64,000 bases of DNA from a virus. Numbering within the stretch: position 1 is the first letter of the stretch; each line of letters begins with the position of its first letter. Below, piece after piece: positions 2-60,568 of the stretch. The stretch lies in IMG/VR virus record IMGVR_UViG_3300049783_001607; one strand, written 5' to 3'. The notes under the pieces are model-generated. The model made no database searches, was not told where the DNA came from, and was given only the letters and a program-made list of their open reading frames with translations. A program made the translations under genes and the position numbers.

Positions 2-3000
2 GTAACTACTACATTTGAGTACGATAAATTTAGACAGGTTTTACAAAAAAAATCTGTTCAAATGCCTTTTTCAGAAGAGCAAATGAAAAAATTAGGTAGT
101 ATGGAGTTGTATAATACTCTCAAGTTATTGAATACTTCTATCCCTTTTACTAAGCGTAGAATGTCGTTTTTATCTCCTCTTGCTAGCGGTAGAACTATCA
201 CTGAAGAGTTTAATAATTTACAAGAATTATATGAATATGTGACAGATCACGAGTCTTATAAAATAGGCAGTGAAAAAGCTTGGGATTTAATTCTTGATAT
301 TTTGAGACAAAACCCTGAAAACTTATACAATTTTGTAGGGACGTTAACAGTTCCTTCTAATCAAAAAACAGGACATAAAAAATTCAATAAATTTAGCGAT
401 GTATTTACTAATAAACCTAACAAAGATTTAGATGTTAATATAGATTATATGGCTAACGAGTTTAATTTTGAAATTCTTAGTAAAGCGCATGAGTACGATG
501 TGTCTGGTAAACTACATGAAGCTTCTTCTTTAACTCTTTTATCTCAGTTAGTTAATGCGGTGTCGTTTGGAGGATTAAGTAATTTAACTTCTAAAAATTT
601 GCAGAATGCTATGATGAGTAAAATGATGCTTAATAGAGTTAGAATTGGTAAAGACTTAGCTCAAATAGCTAGAGATTTACATCCTACTGAAGAATGGACT
701 AAAAAATTAGTGGCTCGTTTGGAAAAAGGTGATGTATCTACTGAAGGATATTCTCCTGAAGAACAAGCTTTATATAGAGAAGTTATGCGTTTAGGTGTTC
801 ATGAAATGGCTAGACTAGCTTTTCAAAAATCTGATTCTGCCCTGATGGGTAAATTAATAAAAGGAACTGATATTATAGTAAATGAAGACGGTTTAGAAAT
901 TGAAGGGGATGAAATAGTTTATTCTTTAGATTCGCCTCAAATAAGAGCCAAAGTTTTAGGTACTTTACGTTCATCTTTCTTTAAAGATACCGTTAAAATG
1001 AAAATGTCTGGTTTTATAGGTACTGTTTCTGCAGCACACAAAGTAATAACTATGTTTACTGCTCCAGGACAATTACGAACAGGGAGACAAGGATATATTA
1101 AAGCTGTTTTTTTAAATAATTTTAAAGCGAAACCTTCTACTGATGAGACTACTTACATTGAGTTGCTTAGTGTAGTAGGCGCAGAAAAAATTATTAATGA
1201 ATATTTAATGCCTCAAGATTTAGTTGAAATTAGGACTAAAGGAGTTAAAACTAGTCAACCAGTTCTTAGGCCTTTATATTCTGTCGACTTAAAAGCGCTT
1301 GCAGCTGATCCTAATAAAGAAGTACTAGTTGTAGTTACTCCGGATTTAAAAGAAGAACCCCTTCTAGATATAAATAAATTTAACGCGTTAGATTCTAATG
1401 CTTTAATAAATATCGATGGTAAAACTATATATAAATGGTATTTACAAGAGCTGTATAATACAACTGAATCTATAAACGCTCTATTTGATAAATACGTTCT
1501 AGAAGAAAACATAGTAGAAAAGTATAACTTGAGATGGATGGATGTTGTTAAAGTATCTTCTCCAGACGACGGCATAAAAACTATAAAAGATACGGAAGCA
1601 TTTAAAAATTATTATAGACTTTCTTTTTCTTCTAAAACTACTGAAAAACAATTGGAAGGGGCTAGAGCAGAAATGATTTTAGAAACGCAAAGTAAAGATC
1701 AAGATGGCGATTCGATGTGGAAAGTAGTACAAGCTGAGGTTGTATTACCCACATACATTAAAAGTCAATTTAATATACCTAGCGGTACTTCTTTATCTGA
1801 GATAATAGGAACTGATTCAGGAAATCAACGTATTAACGCTACTAAATGGTTTGCAGCCAGACATAAAAGAAGAACTAAAATATATAATAAACACGTAGAT
1901 ACTACAAAAAGAATTTACGCTAATATAAGCGCTAAAAAAGGAGTAGAGTACGCTGAAGATATGCTTACTTATCTAGAGTCTTTTAATGACGACGATTTAT
2001 TAAATCCTGAAGCTATAAAAGTTATTAAAGCTAAAATGGAAAAAATTGAATTAGAAGAAATAGATTTTAAAGCGTCTAATTTTCTTAAAACTCTCGAAAC
2101 TGCTTTGACGCGTATACCGGGACAAAGTAAACAATCTGGTTTTATAGGTAACGTAGTAGAATTTTTAGATGCTCAAGGTAACGCTACTTTTGCAGCTACG
2201 GAGCATCTTGTGAATACAGGTGGAGATTTAGATATTGATACATTAAGTGTTCTTACTAAAACCGTAGGAAAATCAGGTGCCATAGAGGACCACACAATTT
2301 TTATAAAAGATGACGGAGGTTTTAATAATGACGATATGCTTGTTTCGTATGAGAAAGAAGTAAAAGATGTTAAAAACAGAGTTAAAAAAGGAGTGGCTCA
2401 ATTAAATGTTGAAGCTAGTAAATACATAGAAAAAAGAGCGTACAAGAAAAAAACTAATACCTCTTCGGAAAGAGCAGAAAGGCTTGAAGAACAATATCAA
2501 AGAGCTGTCAAAATATTTATAGATCCAGCAAAAGAAAAAGAATTAGTAGAAGCAGCTGTTAAAAGAGTTCATGAAAAATATGAAAATATTATATCTAATG
2601 CAATTGCAGACGGTGTGTTTAGAGCGTTAGATAATCCATCTACCGCTGTAGAATTAAACACTCCTATTTCTATGGGTATGTTTTTTCCTATTATGGATAG
2701 ATTAGCTAAATTAGATACTACTACTAAAACCAGATATTCAGGCGAAAATTACACTGCTATATTCCAGTATGAAAATCTTGCAGCTCAGGGTAAAGAAGCT
2801 ATTGGAATATACGCTACAGTATTAAAAATTAACTCGGCTATTCAAGCTGCTAAAATAAATTTTGATTACAATTATAAAAATAAACTTGGTAGACAGCAAT
2901 CTAACCCTTTTAATTTTGTTCATTCTATAACTTATACAAATACAGAAGGAGAACAAACTCTTAAACCAAGAAACGGATTTGCTGATTTAGATAGATTTCC

Positions 3001-6000
3001 TATAATGCAAAGTATTGAAAAATATGGCCCTTTACAAAATGCTTTAAAAAACATTATAGGTAGGACATCTACGTTTGATTCTACTACTGTAAATACTCTT
3101 GTAGCTTTATTAGAAGACAGTGTTGTTAAATCACTTCAGATAGAAAGTAATAGACATAAAGCTCTAGATTTACTTCAAAAGCAGGCTTTGGGTGAAATCA
3201 CAGGCCAAAATATTGATAATGAAGCGATTAAAGATTTTAGAGATAGAATAGATAATCATGCTTTTGTAATGGAAGAATCTGAAGCTGCTGAATTATTTGA
3301 ATTATTTAATGAAGACATAAATAGCTCTCAAGGACGGGGAAAAATTATAAGCGTATTAAATGATACAATAGTAGATTTAAATGAAATAAGTTTTACTGAC
3401 AGACAAAACGCTGTAAACACTGTTCTTACTTTATTTGATATTGAATTACCTGTTGAAGTAGCGGAATCTGATAATATTATAGCAGCATTTACTTCTTTCT
3501 TAAAAAAAGAAGGTAACGAAAAATTAATATCCAAAGCTTTTATAAACGTAATGGGTAAACAACTTAGTAATGATGTGCAGTCCCAGTTTTTATCGGCTGC
3601 AACAGATAACGCTAAAGCTTTAATTCTAGGTAAAATTAAATCTAACTCTCTTACTAATCCTGTAATTACTACAATGTTATTATTAGGCTACGATACAGAT
3701 GTTATAATTGATTTTTTATACGATCCTAAAATAGTTAAAGTATTTGATTATTTTTTAAAGCAGAAAAGTAAATTACAAAGAACTAGAGTTACATCTAGAG
3801 AAATTAAACTTTCTAAATTAGATATGAGCTCTGACTCTGTTAGAAGTTTAATTGATATTCTTGATATCAGTGAACGAGTTACTAAATTTAGAGCTTTAAG
3901 AAGTTTAAATGAAAATGCTCAAATAGAACAATACAAATTAGATAAGATATTATTTGATGTAGCAAGCGTAGATAAAAAAGGGAAAATACCTGGGTCACAT
4001 ATTCTTTATAAAGCTATTATAGATGATGACATCTCAGTATTATCAAAATTAAAAGGAGCTGAAGGATTAATATTTGATACTGCTTCTTTAATATTTTTAC
4101 ATCCTCAATCTAGATCGTTATTTATGAGTATTTATGAAAGCGAGAATTTTAAGTTACCGGCAGTATCAAATGTAGTAGGAGAATTAAGAAAAATGATTGA
4201 TAGTAAATCAGGAGGAATGGAAGCTTATAAAAACATTAATTCTTATATTTCTAAAATGCAAGTTGTTATGTTTTTAAATAGACGAGATGAGGACGGAAAA
4301 GTATATAAGTTTGGTAATGTTGTAAAATTACATGAAGATGGTTCATATACAACAAGTAAGGTACCTTTAAATAACCCTGATAAAAGAGCAGAATTTGTAG
4401 AGAATTTTGGAGATTACTTAAATAAAACTTTAAAAGATATAGCTCAAATTAAAGTTGACAACCCTAAATTTTTATTAGGAGATAATGCGGCTTTATCATC
4501 TTTAGGGTATATGAAAATATTCGGAGCTTCTAAACCTGTTTTTGGTTTCCCCAAACTTAAAAACGATTCGGTAGATAATATAGATGTTGCACTTATATTT
4601 GAAGGTATAAAAGAATTGCAGATAGGTACAGATATAGAAGAATTAGACATTAAACATTCAGAACTTTATAGAAATCTTTCTTTATACGCGCTTATTGTTA
4701 GTGCTGGTGAAATTAAAAAAGGGACTATGATAGAAGTGTATGAAGATTTAAATTTAGAATTATCTAAGTTTGTTAAAAGTATGACCATAGAAGATTATGA
4801 AAAATTTAGAGTTACCGATGAACTTACTATCCGTATTTTACAAAATAGAGTACCTACTGAAGAAGAGTTAAAAAAAGAGAAAGAATTAAACGACGCTAAA
4901 TTAGGGTATGGTGAAGAAGATCAACTTGATCCTGCAGAGTTTTATTCGGGAGAAGAAGATACACAAGTATCAGAAGAAGATATAGAAACTGGAGAAAATG
5001 AAGAAGAATTTGATATTCCTGTTAGTTATAATTACAGCTACAAAAGAGTTGTTTATTCTCCATTAGTTCTTGATAAACAATTTAAAGGTACTATGTCTAA
5101 TATTGGACAGGTATTTAAATCTGTTGATCCTTATTTAAAAGGATCTCTTTTTTACGCTCCTAAATATAATGAAATAGCGTATAGACTATTTCCCTCTAAT
5201 GCAGCAGAAACTCTTCCTAATACATTTAATCAAGCTGCTTTTACAAAAGAAGGAATTAAAATACCTGATAGTATAGCAAATACTCTTACTTTAATAGGTT
5301 TGCAAGTAGGTTTTTCTAGTATATACAACGGACAAGAAATTAGAATTATGGGATTCGCAGGTAATAAGAGGCCTGAAAACGCAAGTTCTTATGCAGATTA
5401 TTATATTGTACTCACTAGAGACGGGCTTAAAGAAATAGCTGGAGCGCATTTAATGAAATATAATGACGATCTTTTATTACAAGGAAATATTATAGAAGAA
5501 GTTAGTAGTACAAACATAGGTAATCTTGATAATTTAAAAGATATCTATTTAGATACTATTCAAGAAATTTCAGATATCCCAATTAATGTAGGTAAAGTTA
5601 TTGATAAAGATATTAAAAGTCTTTATAACAATGAAGACATTATTAATGACTCTATATTATCCCAAGAATTTGAAATGGCGGGTATAAAAGATATACTTAA
5701 AATAGACGATAAGAATTTGCTTAAAAACACTTTATCTTATAGTAAGTATTATAGTCAAGACGTATTTCCTACTGCTTCTTTTGGCAGTAAAGAAATTATG
5801 ATCCCTTCATTTAATTCTGCTGTTGATGGTGGAAAACTTCTTAAAGGCTCTATAATGAAAGAATTAATGTTTAAAGCTATGAATAGACTTAATGATCTTG
5901 ATAAGGGAGAGTCTATTACTTTTTACGGGATTAAAGCCAATACAGAGTTTAGAAAAAAAAGTAAAGAAACTTTAGTTGGAGGAATAGATACTCTTCTTCA

Positions 6001-6526
6001 GCTGTTTAAAGTCAAAGCGTTAAAAGCAAGTAAACCTGTAAGAGGGGTTATAAACTTTGGCAACGGGGCTTATTCTGCTTTAGTAGAGCAGGACACAGAT
6101 TATGGTGCTTATAGAGTTATTATTACTAAAAATGATTCCAATACTAAAATGCTTGTAGCTGATAATTCAGTAAGCGTGTTCAAAGTAAAAACAAATGACG
6201 AAAAAGTTTCAACTACAGATAAAATAGGTATTTCAGGAAACTTAAAAGCACTCGAATTAAATATAATAAATACAGCGGCTTTTAAATCTATTGAAGTTGC
6301 TAAATTAAAAGGTACCTTAATAGTTGTAGAAGCTAAAAATAACACTAATTTAGTATATTTTAAACAAGGAAGCAATTCCACTAATGAAATATATAAAGAA
6401 TTAGTTAATACAAAAGGACCTCTAGGACTTTCTAAGACTACCTTTAATGTTAATAATGATACTTATGAAGAATTAATGAGTATTATAGAAAAAGATAAAT
6501 CAGAGTTTATTAATAAATCTTGTTAA
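2..6526 (+). CDS. Virion-packaged DNA-dependent RNA polymerase (crAss-like, phi14:2 gp66-type); 5'-truncated by the window edge
   Basis: Catalytic DxDxD motif GGDLDID (nt 2219-2239) preceded by RIPGQSKQS (from nt 2111); frame is open from nt 2, so the ATG at 62 is probably internal; size >2170 aa. Confidence 0.9.
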   Translation, partial: VTTTFEYDKFRQVLQKKSVQMPFSEEQMKKLGSMELYNTLKLLNTSIPFTKRRMSFLSPLASGRTITEEFNNLQELYEYVTDHESYKIGSEKAWDLILDILRQNPENLYNFVGTLTVPSNQKTGHKKFNKFSDVFTNKPNKDLDVNIDYMANEFNFEILSKAHEYDVSGKLHEASSLTLLSQLVNAVSFGGLSNLTSKNLQNAMMSKMMLNRVRIGKDLAQIARDLHPTEEWTKKLVARLEKGDVSTEGYSPEEQALYREVMRLGVHEMARLAFQKSDSALMGKLIKGTDIIVNEDGLEIEGDEIVYSLDSPQIRAKVLGTLRSSFFKDTVKMKMSGFIGTVSAAHKVITMFTAPGQLRTGRQGYIKAVFLNNFKAKPSTDETTYIELLSVVGAEKIINEYLMPQDLVEIRTKGVKTSQPVLRPLYSVDLKALAADPNKEVLVVVTPDLKEEPLLDINKFNALDSNALINIDGKTIYKWYLQELYNTTESINALFDKYVLEENIVEKYNLRWMDVVKVSSPDDGIKTIKDTEAFKNYYRLSFSSKTTEKQLEGARAEMILETQSKDQDGDSMWKVVQAEVVLPTYIKSQFNIPSGTSLSEIIGTDSGNQRINATKWFAARHKRRTKIYNKHVDTTKRIYANISAKKGVEYAEDMLTYLESFNDDDLLNPEAIKVIKAKMEKIELEEIDFKASNFLKTLETALTRIPGQSKQSGFIGNVVEFLDAQGNATFAATEHLVNTGGDLDIDTLSVLTKTVGKSGAIEDHTIFIKDDGGFNNDDMLVSYEKEVKDVKNRVKKGVAQLNVEASKYIEKRAYKKKTNTSSERAERLEEQYQRAVKIFIDPAKEKELVEAAVKRVHEKYENIISNAIADGVFRALDNPSTAVELNTPISMGMFFPIMDRLAKLDTTTKTRYSGENYTAIFQYENLAAQGKEAIGIYATVLKINSAIQAAKINFDYNYKNKLGRQQSNPFNFVHSITYTNTEGEQTLKPRNGFADLDRFPIMQSIEKYGPLQNALKNIIGRTSTFDSTTVNTLVALLEDSVVKSLQIESNRHKALDLLQKQALGEITGQNIDNEAIKDFRDRIDNHAFVMEESEAAELFELFNEDINSSQGRGKIISVLNDTIVDLNEISFTDRQNAVNTVLTLFDIELPVEVAESDNIIAAFTSFLKKEGNEKLISKAFINVMGKQLSNDVQSQFLSAATDNAKALILGKIKSNSLTNPVITTMLLLGYDTDVIIDFLYDPKIVKVFDYFLKQKSKLQRTRVTSREIKLSKLDMSSDSVRSLIDILDISERVTKFRALRSLNENAQIEQYKLDKILFDVASVDKKGKIPGSHILYKAIIDDDISVLSKLKGAEGLIFDTASLIFLHPQSRSLFMSIYESENFKLPAVSNVVGELRKMIDSKSGGMEAYKNINSYISKMQVVMFLNRRDEDGKVYKFGNVVKLHEDGSYTTSKVPLNNPDKRAEFVENFGDYLNKTLKDIAQIKVDNPKFLLGDNAALSSLGYMKIFGASKPVFGFPKLKNDSVDNIDVALIFEGIKELQIGTDIEELDIKHSELYRNLSLYALIVSAGEIKKGTMIEVYEDLNLELSKFVKSMTIEDYEKFRVTDELTIRILQNRVPTEEELKKEKELNDAKLGYGEEDQLDPAEFYSGEEDTQVSEEDIETGENEEEFDIPVSYNYSYKRVVYSPLVLDKQFKGTMSNIGQVFKSVDPYLKGSLFYAPKYNEIAYRLFPSNAAETLPNTFNQAAFTKEGIKIPDSIANTLTLIGLQVGFSSIYNGQEIRIMGFAGNKRPENASSYADYYIVLTRDGLKEIAGAHLMKYNDDLLLQGNIIEEVSSTNIGNLDNLKDIYLDTIQEISDIPINVGKVIDKDIKSLYNNEDIINDSILSQEFEMAGIKDILKIDDKNLLKNTLSYSKYYSQDVFPTASFGSKEIMIPSFNSAVDGGKLLKGSIMKELMFKAMNRLNDLDKGESITFYGIKANTEFRKKSKETLVGGIDTLLQLFKVKALKASKPVRGVINFGNGAYSALVEQDTDYGAYRVIITKNDSNTKMLVADNSVSVFKVKTNDEKVSTTDKIGISGNLKALELNIINTAAFKSIEVAKLKGTLIVVEAKNNTNLVYFKQGSNSTNEIYKELVNTKGPLGLSKTTFNVNNDTYEELMSIIEKDKSEFINKSC

Positions 6527-9500
6527 ATATGAAGTGCGCTATATCAGTAAATATAAATAAAGGAACGGCTTTAAATGAAGTAAAAATGTATGGGGCTAAA
6601 AGTGTTCTAGATCTATCAGAAGTTAAGGTAGATAAAAACACTTTAAATTCTAAAATGTCGTTTCCTAGAAATACTAAATTAGCTAAAAATCCTGATTTAT
6701 TCAATAAAGGGGCTAGTTATATATTCTCTAATTCTGGAAAATTTATAGCCGATGATTTTAAAGCTTTGAACGTATTGAAGGACCCTAAAATTTTATCTGA
6801 ACTGGTATCAAGTGGCTCTAATTTATATAAAGGCATAGCGGAAGAGTTTTTTAAAAGAAAAAAAGACAGTCTTATTAGTAATACACCAAACAATACTTCT
6901 AATTATGTTATTAATAATTTACAAGGCAAACCGGTGCCTAGCAGTAATAGTAGAACTTATTTAACTATAACTAGAGAAGATTTAGCTAAAGCTAGAAAAA
7001 TAGTTAATAAAGAATTTAATAAAGTGGATGATCCGTATTTATTAGAAGCTACTAGAATATTTAATGAAGGACTAGAGTTTTTAATTATTTCAAGTCTTTA
7101 TAGAGGTTTTGATGTTGTTATAGAAGGCCCTATAGAAAGTACAATAGTAGATAAAGCTATAAATAAATACAATGTTAAATTAGGGTCTAAAAAAGACGTT
7201 ACTAAACTGACTACAGATAATATATTTTCAGGAGGTGCTAAAGTTTTAAATCCGGTTGCTCACATAGCTATAGAGGAGGCATATAAAAAAAATAAATTTA
7301 AAGGGTCTATTATAAATACTAGTAATTTAGTATTGAATATGTTTACAACTAAAAACGAGCGTAAAACTTTAGAAAAGCATAAAAAAGCTTCTACTAATTC
7401 TAGAATTTTAGTAGCTAATAGAATTATCAAAGTATTTAAAAATATTATACCTAATCTAGAATCTGAAATATTATCTACTTATGAAATTGCAATGATATAT
7501 GGCGATACTTTCGCTAATAAAAAAGGTTTTATAATCGGTAATAAAATTATACTTAACGCAGATACATTTTCTATGGACACAGTGTTTCATGAGTTCAGTC
7601 ATTATTATTCTGCCTGGCTTAAAGAAGACAACCCTGAGATGTTTTCAAAATTAATGGAAGTCACTGAAGAAAAACATGCGGATCTTATCTCTGGGTATAC
7701 AACTATGTATGAAAATACAGGACTTAAATTTAGTAAGAATGATATTATAGAAGAAATTTTTGCTGATCAAATAGGTATGAAAGCCGCTAAGGAATTAGAT
7801 CAAGCTATGGATGAATATGTAGACGATTCTTTTGAAGAAACTATAGATAAATTTTCTCAAGCTTTTCTTATTAAATTAACAGGTAATTCTAAAGCTTTAT
7901 TAAATAAATCAGGGTTAACACTTGATAGTACAATAGCTGACGTATTTAATATAGGGATTCTATATGCAGGTGAAAATACTTCAGAATTGTTAGAAAGAAT
8001 TTCTAGTGACGAGATAAATAGATTTAAAGATTTTTTTATAGATAAATACTCAGTAAGAGAAGTATATAACGGATTAGTAAATAGAGGTTTAATTACATTT
8101 GCAGGAAACAATAAAATAGTCCTTAGAGATATAAATGGTAATAGATACGATGAAAATGGAGTATTATCTAAAAACTCTAATAAGACAGTGACTTTTAAAC
8201 CTTGGGATACTTATGATAATATTAAATACAACAATAAAAAGTTAGATGAAATAACTGGGTATTTAAACAGATTTAAAAATTACGCGTCTGTAATGTTTTC
8301 TATAAAAAATACTGCTCATGAAGTTCAAGATATAATACAAAATCATTCTAATAACATTACTCTTGATATCATATTAAATAAATATAAAGACACTAATAAT
8401 AATATTTTTAATAGAACCACAGAGTACATTACTGATGAATTTACAGATGGTAAAGCTACAGAAGATTATATAGTTCTTAAAGTATACAATGAAAGAATAA
8501 CAGCTTATATTGAAAAAGAGCTTGCAAAAGAAGGTGTTGAAGATACGGTAGAACTTAGAGAAGCAGCAAAAGAATATGCTTTAGAGTATATAACTAGTCC
8601 TACATTTGCCAACTCGTTTAAAAAATCATATAATAAAGTAGGTGAATTATTTAAATTTAAAACAGAGGAAGGTACATATTTGCACACATTAGCTGAGCTT
8701 TATTTTAGAACTCTTAATTTTAGTAATAAAATACAATATAATACCAAAAGAGAAGGAGGTTTTATGCATTTTGCTAAAGGTATCTCTGAAGCTATTGGTT
8801 CTACTGATGTAGCAGAATTTGAAAAATATTTTGAAACTAATTTTTTTAATGAATTACAAGGACAAGAAGGTTCTCCAGAATATAAATCTTTTCTTGACGC
8901 ATATAATTTTATAAAAGAAACCAAGATAAAAAGAGATGTAAAATCTATTGCGGCATCTGCTAAATTTATAGCGTTGTTAGAAAAAGAAGTTATTCCACAT
9001 ATATTAGATCTTCCTGGTCCAATAGTACTTATGCCCGAAGTTAAATTATCTAGCAAATCTTTTGGTGTAGCAGGAACAATAGATTTAATAGTAATTGACG
9101 GTACTGGAAAAGCTAGAATATTTGATTTTAAAACTAAAGAAGAAAATAAACGACCTTTTTGGAATTACTCTAGGCATTTAAGAAGATTAAAAGGGGTTAT
9201 GTCAGGTTATTCAGACAATGCCATGATAAAAGCTAGTATTCAAACATCCATGTATAAAGTTATGCTTAAAGAAATGGGTATTGAAGTAGTAGGTTCAAAA
9301 ATATTTTACGTGGAAAGTTCTTTACAAAGTTCTGTACATACAGATGATCAGTTTGCAAAAGCAGAACAAATGCATTACAACCCTAAAAATATTTTTATAG
9401 AAGGTGTTCAAGATGTTTCAGCTGAACTTTTAGATCATTTTAAAAAAGAAGGTAAAGAAAGCGAGTTATTTACAGAAGTAAATTTACAAACTGCCGTATC

Positions 9501-12500
9501 AAATGCTATAATAACAGCTTCGGGAGGTATTAATATAGATGTAGACGATAATTTAGAAGCTAAAGCAAAAGGTATTTATGAAAGAGCTCTTAGAGATTTG
9601 AGTAAAATTAAAAACGGCTCCGTTGCAAGTAAAGCAGAAATAGATATTCTTAGCCAATTTAATTTAAGTAGAGGTTCAAAAGTCAGTGATAAAAATACAG
9701 GATTAAAAGTATTTTTAGGAGGTAGATTAACTGAAACTTTAGAGGCTGGTGTAATGGGTGATGACGCTATTCAAGCTATTGTAGACCTTCTTAAAAATAG
9801 AAAAGCGGTTAGAAATATGGCCAGCTCTTTAGAAACTGTGTTTAATTCTATGGACAGAAGTTCTAATGAATCAGAAGATTCCGGTTTATCTAGGGATTTA
9901 GATTCTGCTTTTAGAGGAGTTCTAGCTGACACTGATTCTACTACTCATGAATTAACTAGACTCGCTTCTAATATAAATTATGGTTTAGACTTTAGTGATG
10001 TATTATTTGTAAAAAATAAAATAACGCATGAAAATAGAGTAGTAATTTTAAATCACGATCGATCTAAACTATTACCTTTCGGCCCAGGACATAACAATAT
10101 TTTTGGTAAATATTTATCTAATAATGGCGCAAGAATAGCTTTACCCACAATAAATTGGAAAGGTACTAATCATAATATGAGACTTGTTAAAGCGGGCATA
10201 ATGATGGCTTTACAAAAATCTATAGATCCTTCTTTTAACGTTAATTTAATAGTATCTAATAAAGCTGAAGGCCAAGAAAATACTAATATGTCTGTACCTA
10301 ATTTATATGATATGAGTACTTTGTTATTAGTAACTAAAACTTTGTTAATTAATATGAAAGCTGCTGGAGAAGTGTTGCCTCCTGAAATTGAAGCTTTGTT
10401 AGATACTCCAAGTTTATTTGATTCTAAAAATTATATGGCTAATCCTATAACAGCTTTAAGCGAGTTTTTAAGTATGGCTACTGGAGATCTTGTTAAATCT
10501 AAAGATGTATATTTTGGTACTGGACTTAAACGTAAGAACGAGTTGATAAAAGTACTGGATAACTATCGGGGCAGACAAGATACTCAAGGTCTTATAGATT
10601 CTCTTTTAAATTTTCAGAAATCTGTAGAATATAAGCTTAAAACTGATGATGATAAATTAAGAAGTGACTTATGGACTTTATTAGATCATGTAATAATGGA
10701 TTTAATGGGACTTAATTATGCTATGAGCCCTAAAAATACTACTTTTAGTAATAATTTTTTAGGGACTACATCTAAAATGTCAAATCATTTAGGATCGTTT
10801 TTTAACAGGAAAATAGCAGCCAGTCAAACAGCAGAAAAAGAAGCGTTTATTGAATATAGAAATGAGCATGCTGTATGGCTGAATAAATTAGCTGAAGAAA
10901 AAGGAATTAGTCTAACAGGAGGTAGATCTTTATATATGGATAGTATGAAGTCAATTTTTAAAAATCTTTGGTCTACTGATAACAAAGACAGAGAGACAGC
11001 TTTTGTTTTAAAGAACTACAAAACAGGAGCTAATTTATCTTCTTTAGAACGAAAATATTTAAAATATCTTGAGGAAGTTTTTACAAAATTTGGAAATCAA
11101 TCCTCTTTTAGTAAAATAGAAATCCCTGCAGGATGGTCCCCTTTAGTTAAAAAATCTAAACTTAGTTATAGAAATGATACGTCGGCTTTTGAGAGAGCTA
11201 GAAAAACTGTAAAAGATTTGAATTTTAATCGTGCAATGAAAGATGAGGATAATATTTCTCCAATAGAGTCTGAATTTGCTGTAGAATCAAAGTTTAAAGG
11301 GCAATTACCTAATAGCAAATCTCATAAAGAAGAGCAGTTTTCAGATTCTAGAAGGAGTTTATTAGGTTTAGATAGTAATATGATTCCTTTTAATAATGTT
11401 GAGGATAATCATCCACTTGACATGTTAGAAGATAACGTAGAAAATATAGTAGACGCTTTTGTATCAGCTTCTTTAGATGCTTACCACTACAGAGAAATAT
11501 CAGCTTTTGGTAGATCTTTATATTATAATATAAAAAGATATGAGAGAGTAAGTAAATTACCTTATCATAAAATAATTGAAACAATTTCTCTTATACAAAA
11601 AAGAGTAATCAACCATGAAGAATCGGATGCCAATAATAAAGTAATGAATGTTGTAGATGGGTTTGCCACTAATGCAGCGATTGCAGGTACTGTTGGTCAA
11701 GCATTATTAGAGACATTTACTAACCCGTTAGTAACTACAGCTCATTACGTTTCTGATAAATTATATGGTACTCTATTTAAAGGTACTAGAGAATTTAGTC
11801 TTAAAAGTTATACTACCGCTGTTGGAATGGTTACAGGCGGTAATACAGAAACTAAATCTCTTATCAGAGCTATAGATAGTTTATATGGAATATCTAATTC
11901 AGATACTAGGGCTTTAAAGCAAATGCTTAAAATGATTGAAGGAAGAAGTTTATTTCAAAGCAGTAAGCTTATGTTTATTAATAAAATTATGATGCAAACA
12001 TGGCAAAAAGTAACTTTAGTAGCTTATATGTTAGAGCAAGGTACTTTTTTTGCTCATAGTCTTGATTCAGTAGGTAATCTTGTATACGATGAATCTAAAG
12101 ATAAAAGATTTAAAACTAAGGAGGGTAAAAAATTATACAGTGCTGTAAAACTAGAGCTTTCAAAACAAAAAAACGGGTTGACAGGTAACTCTACTGATGA
12201 ATATGAAGATAGAAAACTTAACAAAGCATGGACTGTATTTGATAGTAATCATGTAAAAGAATTAATAGTTGAGTTATACTCGTCTTTAGATGATACGTCT
12301 AAATCTCTTTCTATGTACTATACTTGGATGCAATTCATGATTAAATTTAGATCTTGGATATTTTCTAAAGTACCTAGATATTTTCAAAAACCCTTAACCG
12401 CAGAAGAAAATGAATCTGCTGGAAGACCTACTAAAGTATTGGATCCTAATGAAGAAGATGGTTATAGAATAGAATTTAAAGGAGAAGCTACTGAAGGAAT

Positions 12501-12984
12501 TTTATATACTTTAGTATCTATATCTAAACAACTCGCGGAATATAAATTACAGGTATTTAAAAAAGGATCTCTTACCCCCAAACAAAAAAAGAATATGTCT
12601 TTGTTAATGGGCGATGTTATAGTATCTACTACTATGGCAGCAGCGGCATCTGGAATATTTGCTCTTGCGTTTGATGACGATGATAAAATACCTAAGGTAG
12701 TTTTAATTGCAAAAGACAGATGGGATATGGCTTCATCAGATGTTGTTTTTATAAAATCTTTGGCAGATATAACTACAGGGAATTCTTCTATGTTTATAGG
12801 TGTTTCTATAGCTGCTAGAGCAGTAAAAGCTGCTTTTGATGCTGCTGTTATATTTCCTGTAGCATTAACTAATCCCGAAGTAGGTGTTAGCGATGTTCTT
12901 AGCGCACAAAATAAATTAATGGGTAGTTTAGCTGGGTGGTATAAATCTGTAGAGCTCGTGTACGATACTATAGAGTCAGAGTAA
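6520..12984 (+). CDS. Giant virion/ejection protein with zincin-like metallopeptidase, PD-(D/E)xK nuclease and C-terminal hydrophobic helices
   Basis: HEFSH (7588-7602) plus downstream EEIFAD; EEGTYLH and GTIDLIVIDGTGKARIFDFKT nuclease motifs; adjacent to the vRNAP as in crAss-like phages. Confidence 0.75.
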   Translation: MLNMKCAISVNINKGTALNEVKMYGAKSVLDLSEVKVDKNTLNSKMSFPRNTKLAKNPDLFNKGASYIFSNSGKFIADDFKALNVLKDPKILSELVSSGSNLYKGIAEEFFKRKKDSLISNTPNNTSNYVINNLQGKPVPSSNSRTYLTITREDLAKARKIVNKEFNKVDDPYLLEATRIFNEGLEFLIISSLYRGFDVVIEGPIESTIVDKAINKYNVKLGSKKDVTKLTTDNIFSGGAKVLNPVAHIAIEEAYKKNKFKGSIINTSNLVLNMFTTKNERKTLEKHKKASTNSRILVANRIIKVFKNIIPNLESEILSTYEIAMIYGDTFANKKGFIIGNKIILNADTFSMDTVFHEFSHYYSAWLKEDNPEMFSKLMEVTEEKHADLISGYTTMYENTGLKFSKNDIIEEIFADQIGMKAAKELDQAMDEYVDDSFEETIDKFSQAFLIKLTGNSKALLNKSGLTLDSTIADVFNIGILYAGENTSELLERISSDEINRFKDFFIDKYSVREVYNGLVNRGLITFAGNNKIVLRDINGNRYDENGVLSKNSNKTVTFKPWDTYDNIKYNNKKLDEITGYLNRFKNYASVMFSIKNTAHEVQDIIQNHSNNITLDIILNKYKDTNNNIFNRTTEYITDEFTDGKATEDYIVLKVYNERITAYIEKELAKEGVEDTVELREAAKEYALEYITSPTFANSFKKSYNKVGELFKFKTEEGTYLHTLAELYFRTLNFSNKIQYNTKREGGFMHFAKGISEAIGSTDVAEFEKYFETNFFNELQGQEGSPEYKSFLDAYNFIKETKIKRDVKSIAASAKFIALLEKEVIPHILDLPGPIVLMPEVKLSSKSFGVAGTIDLIVIDGTGKARIFDFKTKEENKRPFWNYSRHLRRLKGVMSGYSDNAMIKASIQTSMYKVMLKEMGIEVVGSKIFYVESSLQSSVHTDDQFAKAEQMHYNPKNIFIEGVQDVSAELLDHFKKEGKESELFTEVNLQTAVSNAIITASGGINIDVDDNLEAKAKGIYERALRDLSKIKNGSVASKAEIDILSQFNLSRGSKVSDKNTGLKVFLGGRLTETLEAGVMGDDAIQAIVDLLKNRKAVRNMASSLETVFNSMDRSSNESEDSGLSRDLDSAFRGVLADTDSTTHELTRLASNINYGLDFSDVLFVKNKITHENRVVILNHDRSKLLPFGPGHNNIFGKYLSNNGARIALPTINWKGTNHNMRLVKAGIMMALQKSIDPSFNVNLIVSNKAEGQENTNMSVPNLYDMSTLLLVTKTLLINMKAAGEVLPPEIEALLDTPSLFDSKNYMANPITALSEFLSMATGDLVKSKDVYFGTGLKRKNELIKVLDNYRGRQDTQGLIDSLLNFQKSVEYKLKTDDDKLRSDLWTLLDHVIMDLMGLNYAMSPKNTTFSNNFLGTTSKMSNHLGSFFNRKIAASQTAEKEAFIEYRNEHAVWLNKLAEEKGISLTGGRSLYMDSMKSIFKNLWSTDNKDRETAFVLKNYKTGANLSSLERKYLKYLEEVFTKFGNQSSFSKIEIPAGWSPLVKKSKLSYRNDTSAFERARKTVKDLNFNRAMKDEDNISPIESEFAVESKFKGQLPNSKSHKEEQFSDSRRSLLGLDSNMIPFNNVEDNHPLDMLEDNVENIVDAFVSASLDAYHYREISAFGRSLYYNIKRYERVSKLPYHKIIETISLIQKRVINHEESDANNKVMNVVDGFATNAAIAGTVGQALLETFTNPLVTTAHYVSDKLYGTLFKGTREFSLKSYTTAVGMVTGGNTETKSLIRAIDSLYGISNSDTRALKQMLKMIEGRSLFQSSKLMFINKIMMQTWQKVTLVAYMLEQGTFFAHSLDSVGNLVYDESKDKRFKTKEGKKLYSAVKLELSKQKNGLTGNSTDEYEDRKLNKAWTVFDSNHVKELIVELYSSLDDTSKSLSMYYTWMQFMIKFRSWIFSKVPRYFQKPLTAEENESAGRPTKVLDPNEEDGYRIEFKGEATEGILYTLVSISKQLAEYKLQVFKKGSLTPKQKKNMSLLMGDVIVSTTMAAAASGIFALAFDDDDKIPKVVLIAKDRWDMASSDVVFIKSLADITTGNSSMFIGVSIAARAVKAAFDAAVIFPVALTNPEVGVSDVLSAQNKLMGSLAGWYKSVELVYDTIESE

Positions 12985-12992
12985 ACATAACC

Positions 12993-13034
12993 AAAAAAAA
13001 ACCCCTAACATAAATTAATACGTTAGGGGTTTTT
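12993..13034. terminator. Bidirectional intrinsic terminator between the convergent gene blocks
   Basis: AAAAACCCCTAAC-loop-GTTAGGGGTTTTT perfect inverted repeat with A/T tracts on both sides. Confidence 0.9.
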
Positions 13035-36904: not shown

Positions 36905-36967
36905 ACTGCAACTAACACTATGCAAAGTGCATTAAAACGCACCTTGCACTTGATTGTTCTAAACAAT
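36905..36967 (+). repeat. Complete short attC-like hairpin site
   Basis: ACTAAC-acta-TGCAAAGTGC-attaaaac-GCACCTTGCA-cttgatt-GTT; 9/10 stem with asymmetric 4/7-nt spacers. Confidence 0.6.
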
Positions 36968-38938: not shown

Positions 38939-39570
38939 TATGTAAAATTTAAAATATTTGCTTACTCTATTTTAAGGTTTTCAGCTTATCCTTTAATTTA
39001 ATAATTCGTCAAATCTACGCTTAACGGTAGTTCATAAACTTGAAATTCACTGAATGTTTCAGTTTTTCTATCTTCATCCGTATAACCACTCAAACCAATT
39101 TCATTATATTTTCCATGAGGAAATAGTTTTATAAAAGTTACTTCGTGAATACAATCTTTTCTTTCGTTTAGGTCGGTGTGATTTTCAATTTCAGAAACAA
39201 AATCTCCTACTTTTAATTTTTTTACATTTACTGACATAATAGTTTCAGTTTTTTTTTATTTTAAATTAACATTATCATAAGAAATTTTAGGAGTAAACTT
39301 AAAATCTTCAGATAGCCAATATTCCCACATCTCATCATCAGTTATAAGACCTTCTTTTCCAAGCTTTTTTATTATACTGGATTTTTCTTGTGTTATATTG
39401 TTTATAGTTTCATTAGAGTATATTTGTTCTATCGATTTTGTTTCTATAGGACCTATCATTTTTTTAACAATTTTAGTTCTATTTATTAACATTTCATCAA
39501 TGGTGTTTAATCTTTTTAAAATATAATTTATTTCCATAATCTACTTCTTTTTAATTAAATAATTCAATTT

Positions 39571-44376: not shown

Positions 44377-44646
44377 CGTACAACATTATGTAAATTTAAT
44401 TGCTCGACTACGTAGTTATCTAGTAACTTTTCCATGTCATTTACAATCATGATGCATTCGATACGTTTATCTGTTTTATCAAGTTCCTGTGCTAATTTAA
44501 GAAGTTTAAGTATTATTTCTTTATGTGCCATTCAATTAAAGTATTTTAATATTTGTTAGCATAGTAATTTTATCACAGCACTATGAATATCCATCACATT
44601 AGAGTGCATTAAAACGCACAATAACATTATGTATAGGTAATATTAC
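44377..44646 (+). repeat. Two attC-like left arms and a degenerate right arm
   Basis: TACAACATTATGTAAATTTAATTGCTCG (44379-44406); AATAACATTATGTATAGG (44620-44637); 17-mer AGTGCATTAAAACGCAC at 44603-44619 is identical to 36926-36942. Confidence 0.55.
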
Positions 44647-58428: not shown

Positions 58429-59430
58429 ATAATTTGTTATTTAATTTTTCTAAGGCGTCAAATCTTTCTTGGCCAAACCATAAAGTATTATCTTTTTGTA
58501 ATTCTATCAATCTTTCTCTTTGTAAATGTTCAGGTTTAGTTAATCCACGATAAACCTGTATTTCACATTTGTGACCGGCTTTTGTTCCACAATTTATACA
58601 TCTGTTATTAGCGTGACTGTTTACTCTATCTATACAGTCAATAAATTTTTTTGAATTTTGTTTCGTATCCATAGCGTAATTATTATAAAATATTAGTATT
58701 TGTAAATTATTAAATAAATTAATAATTACCTGTTGCACCCATAACTATTTCTAAAGTATTACTTGAAGGAATTCTATTTTTAGGTAATCTTTTAATTTCA
58801 TTTACTGTATAGCCTTGACTTTTCATAAGAATTTTAAAGCTTTCAAATGATGTGCTGTGCGTACCCGCTCCAGGAAGTTTGTAACTTATATTTTTCATTT
58901 GTACAGAACTGATTTTTGCATCTGTTTCAAAAACAACAGGAATAAAATAATATCCTTGGTTGTCTTCTTTATAAATAAATCTTTCCATGGTTTTTAATTT
59001 TTTATAAGGTATTCACAACGAGGGCATTGTTTTAAACAGCGTCTTCCTTGTCCTCTTAGTTTGTAACCTTCACAATAATATTTATTGGTAGCTTTTAATT
59101 TTTTAAGTGCACGCTTTAAAAGTTTAATTTTTTTTGCCATAGAAATAATAAAGTCTGAATTTGATTCTATTTTTAAAAAAATCAGTTGTTTTTCAATATC
59201 CTGTTTTAGCAAACGGATTTTTTCTTTCATGCTTTTCCTCAGTAATTTTTAATTATTATTTATTATAAAATATTCTTCGTTAGATTTAAAACCAGAGTAT
59301 TTTAAATAATTTTTTACTTATTGAACACTTTCCTTTTTTTAGTATCAAAACTAACATGAGTATTCTTTTTCGTCGGATTTTATTAATGCCCTAGTTTTAA
59401 ATTAATAGTTTAAATTATAAATAGTATTTA

Positions 59431-59526
59431 AATATAAGTAATGTAGTGATGTAGAAGTTAAATGCGCTCTACATTTCTAGAAGCATCTAGACACTACCCC
59501 CCCTGTAGTGCTACATTACTTATATT
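59431..59526. ncRNA. Candidate structured element (four-way junction; RNA or ssDNA)
   Basis: 16-bp perfect closing stem enclosing three perfect hairpins of 7, 6 and 6 bp. Confidence 0.55.
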
Positions 59527-59533
59527 ATTAATA

Positions 59534-59692
59534 TTAGAAAGATTGTCTCTTATCTGTAAGAACTTCACGATTTTCATTAACAGTCCTGTAATTTAAATTA
59601 TCTGTTCCTACACTTGCCCAAGCAATCGCCTCATTTCCCCAAGTACTAACTGTAATCCATTCTGTACCATTGAAATATTGTAATTCAATCAT
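59534..59692 (-). CDS. 52-aa hypothetical protein (MIELQYFNGTEWITVSTWGNE...) below the ORF-track cutoff
   Basis: ATG...TAA read by eye; ends just upstream of the cloverleaf on the minus strand. Confidence 0.55.
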   Translation of the reverse strand: MIELQYFNGTEWITVSTWGNEAIAWASVGTDNLNYRTVNENREVLTDKRQSF

Positions 59693-59703
59693 TTTTTTTT
59701 ACT

Positions 59704-60069
59704 TTAATATTTTACATTTTTTACCCAACTAAGTAATTTAGCGTCTGTAATAAATTTATCTTCGTTAAAATCTGCTAACGATAAAGACAATATATTTTCA
59801 ATTCCTTTTTTACATTGTTCATCCTCACATAATTTCCATTCTTTATATGACGTTATAATTTCTTGTCTTTTTGCTTTAGTAAAACTATTGGTCTCTTCAA
59901 AAATTTCTCTATCTGCGTTTTTTAAAGCTTTCCCAACAGTTTTTTTATAACCTACTCCAAACCAACCAAAACCATAACTTAAAGTCAACAACAGTATTAT
60001 CCCTAATAAAAGTAATCCTATGTTTTTAAATATGCTTTTCATATTAATGAAGTTTGATTGGTGAAACAA
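59704..60069 (-). CDS. Single-TM membrane protein, partner of the lipoprotein
   Basis: N-terminal hydrophobic helix followed by NADREIFEET. Confidence 0.6.
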   Translation of the reverse strand: MFHQSNFINMKSIFKNIGLLLLGIILLLTLSYGFGWFGVGYKKTVGKALKNADREIFEETNSFTKAKRQEIITSYKEWKLCEDEQCKKGIENILSLSLADFNEDKFITDAKLLSWVKNVKY

Positions 60070-60568
60070 TAATTAACGGCTCAATATAAACTGGATGCGG
60101 CTTTCCTTTTTCATCTAAAAGCATATACCACGTTGCGCTTGTAGAAGTAGGCATAAATAAACCATTAGGGTCTGCTTGAGGTACAATAGCTGCGTCATTT
60201 GAATGATAACTAGTAATTCCATAATCAGTAACATCAACTAGCTTTTGAGGGCTTGTAAATTGCGTTGCTGCCGGTATTCCAAAACCGATTCCCCTACCTA
60301 GAAATTGACCTACTTTGCCGTTCATTTCGTTAACTAGATAGCAGTAAGTAATTAAATTTTCTTGATCTCTTAATTCTAAGATCATTTTCATTAATTTACG
60401 TTCTTTAAAGTTAATAATAGCCGGCATTCCAACTTGTTTTTGCATTTCGCTTAAACTTTGTTCAGTTTGAAGTTGCTGGGTTTTATCCGCCGTGTTTTTT
60501 GGTAATTGTGCATCACAACTTGTAAATAACCCAATAGCAATAATTAAAATAGTCAGTAATTTTTTCAT
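60044..60568 (-). CDS. Phage lipoprotein
   Basis: Signal peptide II lipobox LFTSC; PQADPNGLF and VYIEP motifs. Confidence 0.75.
   Translation of the reverse strand: MKKLLTILIIAIGLFTSCDAQLPKNTADKTQQLQTEQSLSEMQKQVGMPAIINFKERKLMKMILELRDQENLITYCYLVNEMNGKVGQFLGRGIGFGIPAATQFTSPQKLVDVTDYGITSYHSNDAAIVPQADPNGLFMPTSTSATWYMLLDEKGKPHPVYIEPLIIVSPIKLH

Follow-up and report, generated by a model that had tools for sequence, protein, structure and literature searches.

A perfectly paired cloverleaf in a phage intergenic gap and the stem-clamped elements related to it

What is a fully paired four-way junction, which is not a tRNA, doing between two small genes of a phage? The question is raised by positions 59431-59526 of a 64,000-nt stretch of viral DNA (IMG/VR record IMGVR_UViG_3300049783_001607), referred to below as the window. 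A sequence-only reading of this locus had suggested an uncharacterised non-coding RNA, a tRNA mimic, a single-stranded DNA structure such as an origin, or a hairpin promoter of the type used by the N4 virion RNA polymerase. We examined the element itself, its neighbourhood and its homologues in viral, metagenome and MAG sequences.

Structure and setting of the window element

Inspection of the sequence showed a 96-nt cloverleaf (59431-59526) in which a perfect 16-bp closing helix encloses three perfect hairpins, and all structural details given by the sequence-only reading (helix, hairpins, loops, linkers of 0-2 nt and adjacency to a 52-aa ORF) were found to hold. On the + strand, the hairpins read ATGTAGA/TCTACAT with a 12-nt loop, TCTAGA/TCTAGA with an AGCA loop and CACTAC/GTAGTG with a CCCCCCT loop, and the junction linkers are 2, 1, 0 and 0 nt in this order. 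All genes from approximately 13 kb to 64 kb of the window are on the - strand, and the sense reading of the element is therefore the - strand. In the sense orientation, the 5' arm of the closing helix, AAUAUAAGUAAUGUAG (59511-59526, -), which matches the family helix described below at 13 pattern positions, pairs perfectly with the 3' arm, CUACAUUACUUAUAUU (59431-59446, -). Between the arms lie a first hairpin, CACUAC/GUAGUG with an AGGGGGG loop (59492-59510, -), a second, UCUAGA/UCUAGA with a UGCU loop (59476-59491, -), and a third, AUGUAGA(G)/(C)UCUACAU (59449-59474, -). For both strands the RNA minimum-free-energy fold was exactly this four-way junction, with energies of -36.1 kcal/mol for the + strand (z = -8.2) and -35.1 for the - strand (z = -6.05); DNA parameters gave -22.1 (z = -7.8), and none of 200 shuffles equalled these energies. 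The closing helix is also the sole perfect inverted repeat of at least 16 nt with a long spacer in the window. The cloverleaf structure is thus real and far beyond chance.

The interior is built of repeated GTAG/CTAC and TCTAGA words. Neither ATGTAG, considered as an iteron (42 occurrences in the window and 33 expected), nor AATATAAG, considered as a general promoter word (15 and 13), was enriched. Metagenome copies of the same phage have either G7 or G6 in the loop of the first sense hairpin, and in the variant L148 a 10-nt insertion together with two substitutions remodels the third hairpin, whose 3' arm pairs with a newly inserted GUAGA. These differences indicate that the interior evolves fast yet stays hairpinned. 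The closing helix of the window copy contains Watson-Crick pairs only, without any wobble, so that the sequence of this copy gives no indication of its strand.

With a tRNA the element shares a four-way junction of similar size. However, its closing helix has 16 bp instead of 7, and it lacks a T-loop, the GG of a D-loop, a 7-nt anticodon loop and a CCA end; consistent with the view that it is not a tRNA, ARAGORN found no tRNA or tmRNA gene in the window, and no family member tested was matched by ARAGORN or by the Rfam tRNA model. No Rfam family reached the gathering threshold at the element. The window's only Rfam match above that threshold was elsewhere, a DUF805b RNA motif at 38959-38994 (-) (40.2 bits, E = 6e-8).

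The window (28% GC) is phage DNA, with genes for a family A DNA polymerase, a Dda-like helicase, rIIA/rIIB, an exonuclease, a ligase and thymidylate synthase. The 303-nt gap that holds the element (59231-59533) is the largest intergenic gap in its gene-dense part. Upstream, the element starts 7 nt past the stop codon of the 52-aa ORF (59534-59692, -), which belongs to no known family and is missing at the syntenic site of two related phages, L001 and L150; it is preceded by a conserved gene pair (174 aa and 112/121 aa; 59704-60568, -) that serves as the synteny anchor with both relatives. Downstream, an AT-rich spacer of 200 nt (59231-59430, -), with one sigma-70-like match (TTTAAA-17-TATAAT, 59290 to 59262), leads to a 78-aa ORF (58994-59230, -) not shared with the relatives, and synteny therefore breaks at the element. 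Among 49 homologues of the 112-aa protein, one was found in a Tenacibaculum piscium assembly. Since the MAG matches of the element family are also mostly from Bacteroidota, the host is probably a marine member of this phylum.

Such a position, on the sense strand and directly behind a stop codon, would suit a 3'-end structure of the upstream mRNA, either an unusual terminator or an exonuclease block, with the A-/U-rich lower helix acting as A- and U-tracts. The 3' arm and its flank are U-rich, the sigma-70-like promoter stands downstream for the next gene, and plain terminator hairpins occupy the same site in the relatives L197, L150 and L151. However, a terminator scan of 58900-59800 returned no site, an interior of 64-78 nt is far from a terminator loop, and the constant length, fixed G.U pairs and class A conservation described below would be left unexplained, so that we consider this explanation very doubtful.

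N4 promoters are hairpins of 5-7 bp with 3-nt loops located upstream of early operons. The stable DNA fold, the presence of rIIA/rIIB and the large, virion-size ORFs on the opposite strand were the features in favour of such a promoter, in which a single-stranded hairpin would be recognised by a virion RNA polymerase. The window hairpins are of the wrong type: within a 16-bp clamp, they have stems of 6-8 bp and loops of 4, 7 and 10-12 nt. Besides, the element comes after a gene and not ahead of an early operon. An N4-like or crAss-like virion RNA polymerase could not be confirmed in the window, whose ORFs of at least 400 aa encode PolA, helicase, rIIA/B or exonuclease, or are the two ORFs of 2154 aa; the latter showed neither a polymerase match nor the DFDxD motif characteristic of crAss-type virion RNA polymerases. 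The promoter suggested by the sequence-only reading was thus unsupported, and a chance palindrome is excluded by the z-scores and by the existence of homologues; together these two explanations are scarcely credible.

The two large ORFs just mentioned are adjacent (62-6526, + and 6520-12984, +) and each is exactly 2154 aa long; they had no informative PHROG match, apart from one weak exonuclease-like stretch, and no match in Cellulophaga phage phi14:2. Where the + and - gene blocks converge, a GC-rich hairpin between A- and T-runs (12997-13034) is probably a bidirectional terminator.

A common closing helix around different interiors

Homologues of the element were found. The closest IMG/VR relative of the window, L001 (74% identical to it in the DNA of the two upstream genes), carries a 108-nt element closed by a stem just after its homologue of the 112-aa gene, with the same helix start (AATATAAG...CTTATATT) and an unrelated interior. 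L150, the closest relative by the 112-aa protein, carries a weak 109-nt member at the syntenic site, whose helix forms only on the sense strand. As the window copy is syntenic with both, three related phages have three different interiors at one locus. Other relatives that have the 112-aa gene (L196-L200 and L151) were without the element.

The position behind the 112-aa gene is a hot spot of accessory or anti-defence genes. A DNA methylase/Tad2-like protein is encoded there in L199 (1863-2339) and an RVT_1 reverse transcriptase in L200 (2949-3339), the latter preceded by a 13-bp inverted repeat (L200:2757-2859).

Additional members were obtained by a first loose scan, which added L067, and by a helix search pattern of 13 + 13 positions placed 60-90 nt apart. 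The pattern matched 5 viral, 28 metagenome and 6 MAG loci, the last mostly from Bacteroidota, and the reversed control pattern gave no match in the viral collection. Five matches (L166, L181, L190, L193 and L195) were set aside; these were giant foldback palindromes that differed in length and had no flanking frame, and are probable chance matches of a palindromic pattern. The family helix closes elements in about 30 phage and metagenome contigs and in two Bacteroidota MAGs. The remaining members fall into approximately 12 classes with unrelated interiors, have a closing helix of 14-18 bp and are strikingly constant in length (106-109 nt). Most are also framed by TAAC(G), 3-8 nt before the element, and by GTTAT(AAGTATG), 4 nt after it. 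At 96 nt, the window copy falls 10-13 nt short of the other members and has no TAAC...GTTAT frame, and its helix matches all 13 pattern positions. The best explanation is that it belongs, as a divergent and unusually compact member, to an undescribed phage family of stem-clamped elements.

Homology between the interiors of different classes was not general (mean z = 0.25). The only shared parts were a T-arm, in classes C and J, and one hairpin, in classes A and E. Most class interiors also fold no better than shuffled sequences (z of about 0); the window interior, with z of -2 to -2.8, is the exception. Canonical T-arm hairpins of the GGUUCGAUUCC type occur twice in class C and once in class J, all three in the sense orientation, and that of class J abuts the 3' arm of the closing helix, as in tRNA. 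These classes are not tRNAs (ARAGORN found none at the elements in 20 loci, and there was no tRNA match at E <= 10). The idea of a tRNA mimic is not borne out for the window copy, which has no T-loop; the T-arm hairpins belong to its sister classes. When the window element, 14 family loci, class C and class A were searched against Rfam 15, nothing reached the gathering threshold and only insignificant matches to miRNA and CRISPR-repeat families appeared; a local search with the window element gave nothing below E = 0.5. Neither the locus, the element nor class A showed DNA similarity to cultured phages, and the exact loop hairpin of the window element was not found in IMG/VR.

Class A was retrieved from the viral collection with two conserved interior blocks, the helix being ignored. 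This search yielded 21 viral contigs with interiors about 90% identical and unrelated neighbouring genes; these are L211 (element at 6106-6213) and 20 others, which carry the 107-nt element in unrelated phage contexts. The usual helix of this class, AAUAUGAGAAGUGGGG/CCCCAUUUCUUAUAUU, contains G.U pairs at positions 6 and 11, whose G is invariably in the 5' arm. All three states (G.U, A-U and G-C) are present at position 11, which is the classic path of an RNA helix. In one member, L203, the closing helix is different and still pairs. GC content is 0.44 in class A elements vs 0.30-0.39 in their flanks. No Rfam family matched the class at E <= 10, no copy was detected in cultured phages, and a short ORF in the interior showed no coding-type conservation. 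Judged by its sequences, class A behaves like a conserved RNA gene and is a candidate for a new RNA family in its own right.

Pairing on the gene strand and possible functions

Covariation was analysed in 21 distinct members in the sense orientation. The conserved helix is AU-rich and comprises 13-16 bp, with the consensus AAUAUAAG-W-A-R-UG / CA-Y-U-W-CUUAUAUU, i.e., a purine-rich 5' arm, AAUAU(A/G)AG-W-A-(G/A)-UG..., and a pyrimidine-rich 3' arm, ...CA-(U/C)-U-W-CUUAUAUU; conservation at positions 1-8, 10, 12 and 13 was partly imposed by the search in the pattern-derived set, and only class A is unbiased in this respect. In the 21 members, 97% of helix cells were paired, and pairing collapsed to 36-56% when the helix register was slid. 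The closing helix covaried at positions 9, 14 and 15: position 9 is A-U in 11 members and U-A in 10, and positions 14 and 15, which were unconstrained by the search pattern, show three pair types each. None of 500 column shuffles matched the observed covariation score. Position 11 was informative with regard to strand, being G.U in 15 of the 21 members, A-U in three, G-C in three and never A.C. In 21 of 22 oriented cases, which represent nine independent classes, the strand on which G.U forms coincided with the one that encodes the adjacent genes. A strand-symmetric site in double-stranded DNA would show A.C as often as G.T; hence, the element acts as a folded single strand of the sense sequence. 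The helix is shown to be under selection to pair in the gene strand only. RNA is the simplest reading of this pairing, and folded non-template DNA is the alternative.

Among the suggestions made from the sequence, an uncharacterised non-coding RNA fits best, with homologues, a covarying helix and wobbles that are G.U solely on the gene-sense strand. Our best reading, for which we estimate a probability of about one half, is a stem-clamped small RNA in which the helix is a common handle and the interior provides specificity. The element would be transcribed with or within early or replication-module transcripts and would work as RNA. A double-strand-specific factor, such as RNase III or a phage protein, may recognise or cleave its conserved, G.U-bearing helix, which could also act as a clamp that protects the RNA ends. 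The specific activity would then be carried by the 64-78-nt interior (about 75 nt), which is unrelated in sequence from class to class and consists of three perfect hairpins in the window copy, a conserved irregular fold in class A and T-arm mimics in classes C and J. As a precedent, abundant and stable non-coding RNAs are produced from early intergenic regions of Cellulophaga phage phi14:2 (bioRxiv 10.1101/2020.03.07.982082); that genome contained no convincing member of the family.

Several observations weaken the small-RNA reading. The window copy is all Watson-Crick, shorter than other members and frameless, and most class interiors fold like shuffled sequence. Folded single-stranded DNA would explain the preference for G.T over A.C equally well, and perfect stems made of repeated GTAG/CTAC words would also fit palindrome growth at the DNA level. 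Besides, no partner protein was found among the proteins examined near the elements.

In a broader version of this reading, the elements would form an unrecognised class of phage small-RNA cassettes, with a universal, G.U-marked handle by which a conserved factor of the host or the phage would process, load or protect them, and with interiors exchanged like alleles, some being T-arm mimics and that of class A matching a housekeeping RNA in its conservation. This proposal is speculative and we give it low odds. The interiors could also be decoys or regulators directed against host defence or RNA-targeting enzymes, an idea based on the Tad2-like domain, reverse transcriptase or methyltransferases carried at the same locus in relatives.

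With approximately 12 interior classes, found on more than 45 contigs whose samples were marine, freshwater or sediment, and with links to Bacteroidota, the family is testable. Most non-coding RNAs of uncultured phages are unknown, and neither Rfam nor the cultured phages provided a match to this family. Its architecture, in which interchangeable interiors are enclosed by a single conserved helix at mosaic junctions, is unusual; it could lead to a common factor for RNA processing or binding, and to a novel way in which RNA functions pass between phages.

The alternative at the DNA level is a single-stranded replication structure, such as an ssi-type priming signal or an origin element. Folding would take place on the lagging-strand template, which corresponds to the sense strand if replication forks and transcription run in the same direction. 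It is a live rival, as a G.T wobble on one strand suits folded single-stranded DNA as well as RNA. The number of copies is usually one or two per contig, and, in favour of this reading, a complete 73-kb phage genome has exactly one. Several copies adjoin replication genes: that of L172 lies upstream of a DnaB-like helicase gene, those of L162 and L176 upstream of a DNA helicase gene, and that of L183 after a primase/helicase gene. The window element also occupies the widest gap between genes and borders 200 nt of AT-rich DNA. In two relatives, the same gene pair that precedes the window element is followed by an AT-rich intergenic stretch packed with GTTCAAC/GTTGAAC (L151:3340-3880 and L199:2340-2920) that looks like an iteron-type origin; one of the two is inside a Tenacibaculum piscium assembly, and the stretch is near the gene of a 1150-aa DnaG-type primase. 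On the other hand, GTTCAAC iterons are absent from the window and no DnaA-type repeats were seen at the element either. Many other copies lie among small ORFs, methyltransferase genes or an HNH gene, away from replication genes, and some genomes have two copies (about 1.1 kb apart in L179 and 10.9 kb apart in L171/L176). Neither the T-arm motifs nor the conserved irregular interior of class A has an obvious role in DNA. Taken together, these observations make a replication structure unlikely. If this were nonetheless the function, the family would mark replication starts in a large phage group without a cultured model.

Mosaic junctions and comparison with known systems

Family elements are located at mosaic junctions in early or replication modules, with one flank shared and the other not. 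Such junctions were seen between the window and L001, between L157 and L163, and in two further sets (L162, L176 and L171; L164, L175 and L178). Two identical class B elements with different immediate flanks occur 10.9 kb apart on one 30.7-kb contig (L171:319-426 and L176:11202-11309), and L152 has another combination of the flanks. No consistently adjacent gene or common protein family was found across classes or within class A.

These findings raise the question of whether the element is a DNA recombination linker or a small mobile element (PeSL- or MITE-like), whose inverted termini would promote module exchange and whose interior would be cargo. Besides the junctions and the identical copies in different contexts, the near-identity of class A in unrelated neighbourhoods and the sporadic presence of elements among close relatives are consistent with this view. 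Also, the TAACG...GTTATA frame is not limited to family elements. In L179, which has two stem-clamped elements of different classes at the spacing given above, nearly all small ORFs are followed by plain hairpins that have the loop UCGUUUUAAUG and lie within this frame. Two plain hairpins of the window (36905-36967, - and 44577-44620, -), with the loop GCGUUUUAAUG and the frame AACAA...GTTA, match these generic hairpins of L179, a type also present at the flanks of most stem-clamped elements. By comparison of this kind, the plain framed hairpins may be PeSL-like regulatory or recombination cassettes.

A linker or mobile element is nevertheless distinctly unlikely. Symmetric DNA sites would give A.C as often as G.T, which is not the case. 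Terminal inverted repeats are present, but the flanks add further inverted and not direct repeats, so that they continue the palindrome; TA is found on both sides in some classes only, and there are no consistent target-site duplications. Genomes usually have one copy instead of many, and no transposase or recombinase is nearby. Finally, this explanation accounts for the location of the elements but not for the conservation of the class A interior. It does not exclude the RNA reading, with which it agrees at least in part.

PeSL cassettes of T4-type phages are short, conserved intergenic stem-loops found in variable regions rich in small ORFs and at the borders of swapped modules (PMC2839356, PMC4122927). 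The family elements resemble them in being intergenic stem-loops at module borders among small ORFs. However, PeSLs are described as motifs composed of a terminator and a promoter, which mediate such swaps and occur many times per genome (PMC4122927), whereas the family element is about 100 nt long and usually single-copy. Unlike PeSLs, it is strand-specific in pairing and has a large interior, variable or conserved. The simple TAACG...GTTATA hairpins beside family elements are the closer analogue of PeSLs.

The attC sites of integrons are imperfect inverted repeats that follow an ORF, have conserved ends and a variable centre, and act as a folded single strand in one orientation. A post-ORF inverted repeat with conserved ends and strand-oriented folding is common to both systems. 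However, the R''/R' cores of attC (RYYYAAC/GTTRRRY) are absent and the window helix ends in AATATAAG/CTTATATT; other members have an AAC...GTT frame at their flanks, which the window copy lacks. In the family elements it is the top (coding) strand that folds, the conserved unit is the element and not the adjacent gene, and no integrase was found among the proteins scanned.

RNase III processing stems are found around rRNAs, phage T7 cistrons and some tRNA precursors. As in the family elements, a long helix is formed between cistrons by sequences on either side of a structured RNA. The sequences of such stems are not conserved between unrelated phages, unlike the family helix.

The nearest architectural analogue is Y RNA. 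Y RNAs and YrlA are 80-130 nt long; their 5' and 3' ends pair into a long stem that contains a conserved recognition site, and their large interior is variable (PMC4201824). Family elements, with lengths of 96-109 nt and a terminal helix of 14-18 bp, agree with this description in length and stem, and the T-arms in some members and the several distinct species per genome are further likenesses. However, neither the window element nor the helix consensus contains the GNCGAA(N0-1)G motif of the Ro/Rsr site, and the GACGAAC of class A, in the middle of the interior, fits neither this motif nor its position near the 5' end. The family helix is AU-rich with G.U wobbles, the window copy has neither T nor D arm, and there was no Rfam match. 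A TROVE (Ro60/Rsr) gene, which would be expected within about 4 kb on the same strand, was not found within the window, and the window ORFs scanned included no TROVE/Ro protein, RNA ligase or RNase. A separate observation concerns the same phage approximately 6-7 kb past the high end of the window, where an ORF-free island of 1.4 kb (L201:708-2099) without Rfam matches contains complex stem-closed elements, a T-arm-like hairpin (GGTTCGAAACC) and three GAATATAAG words.
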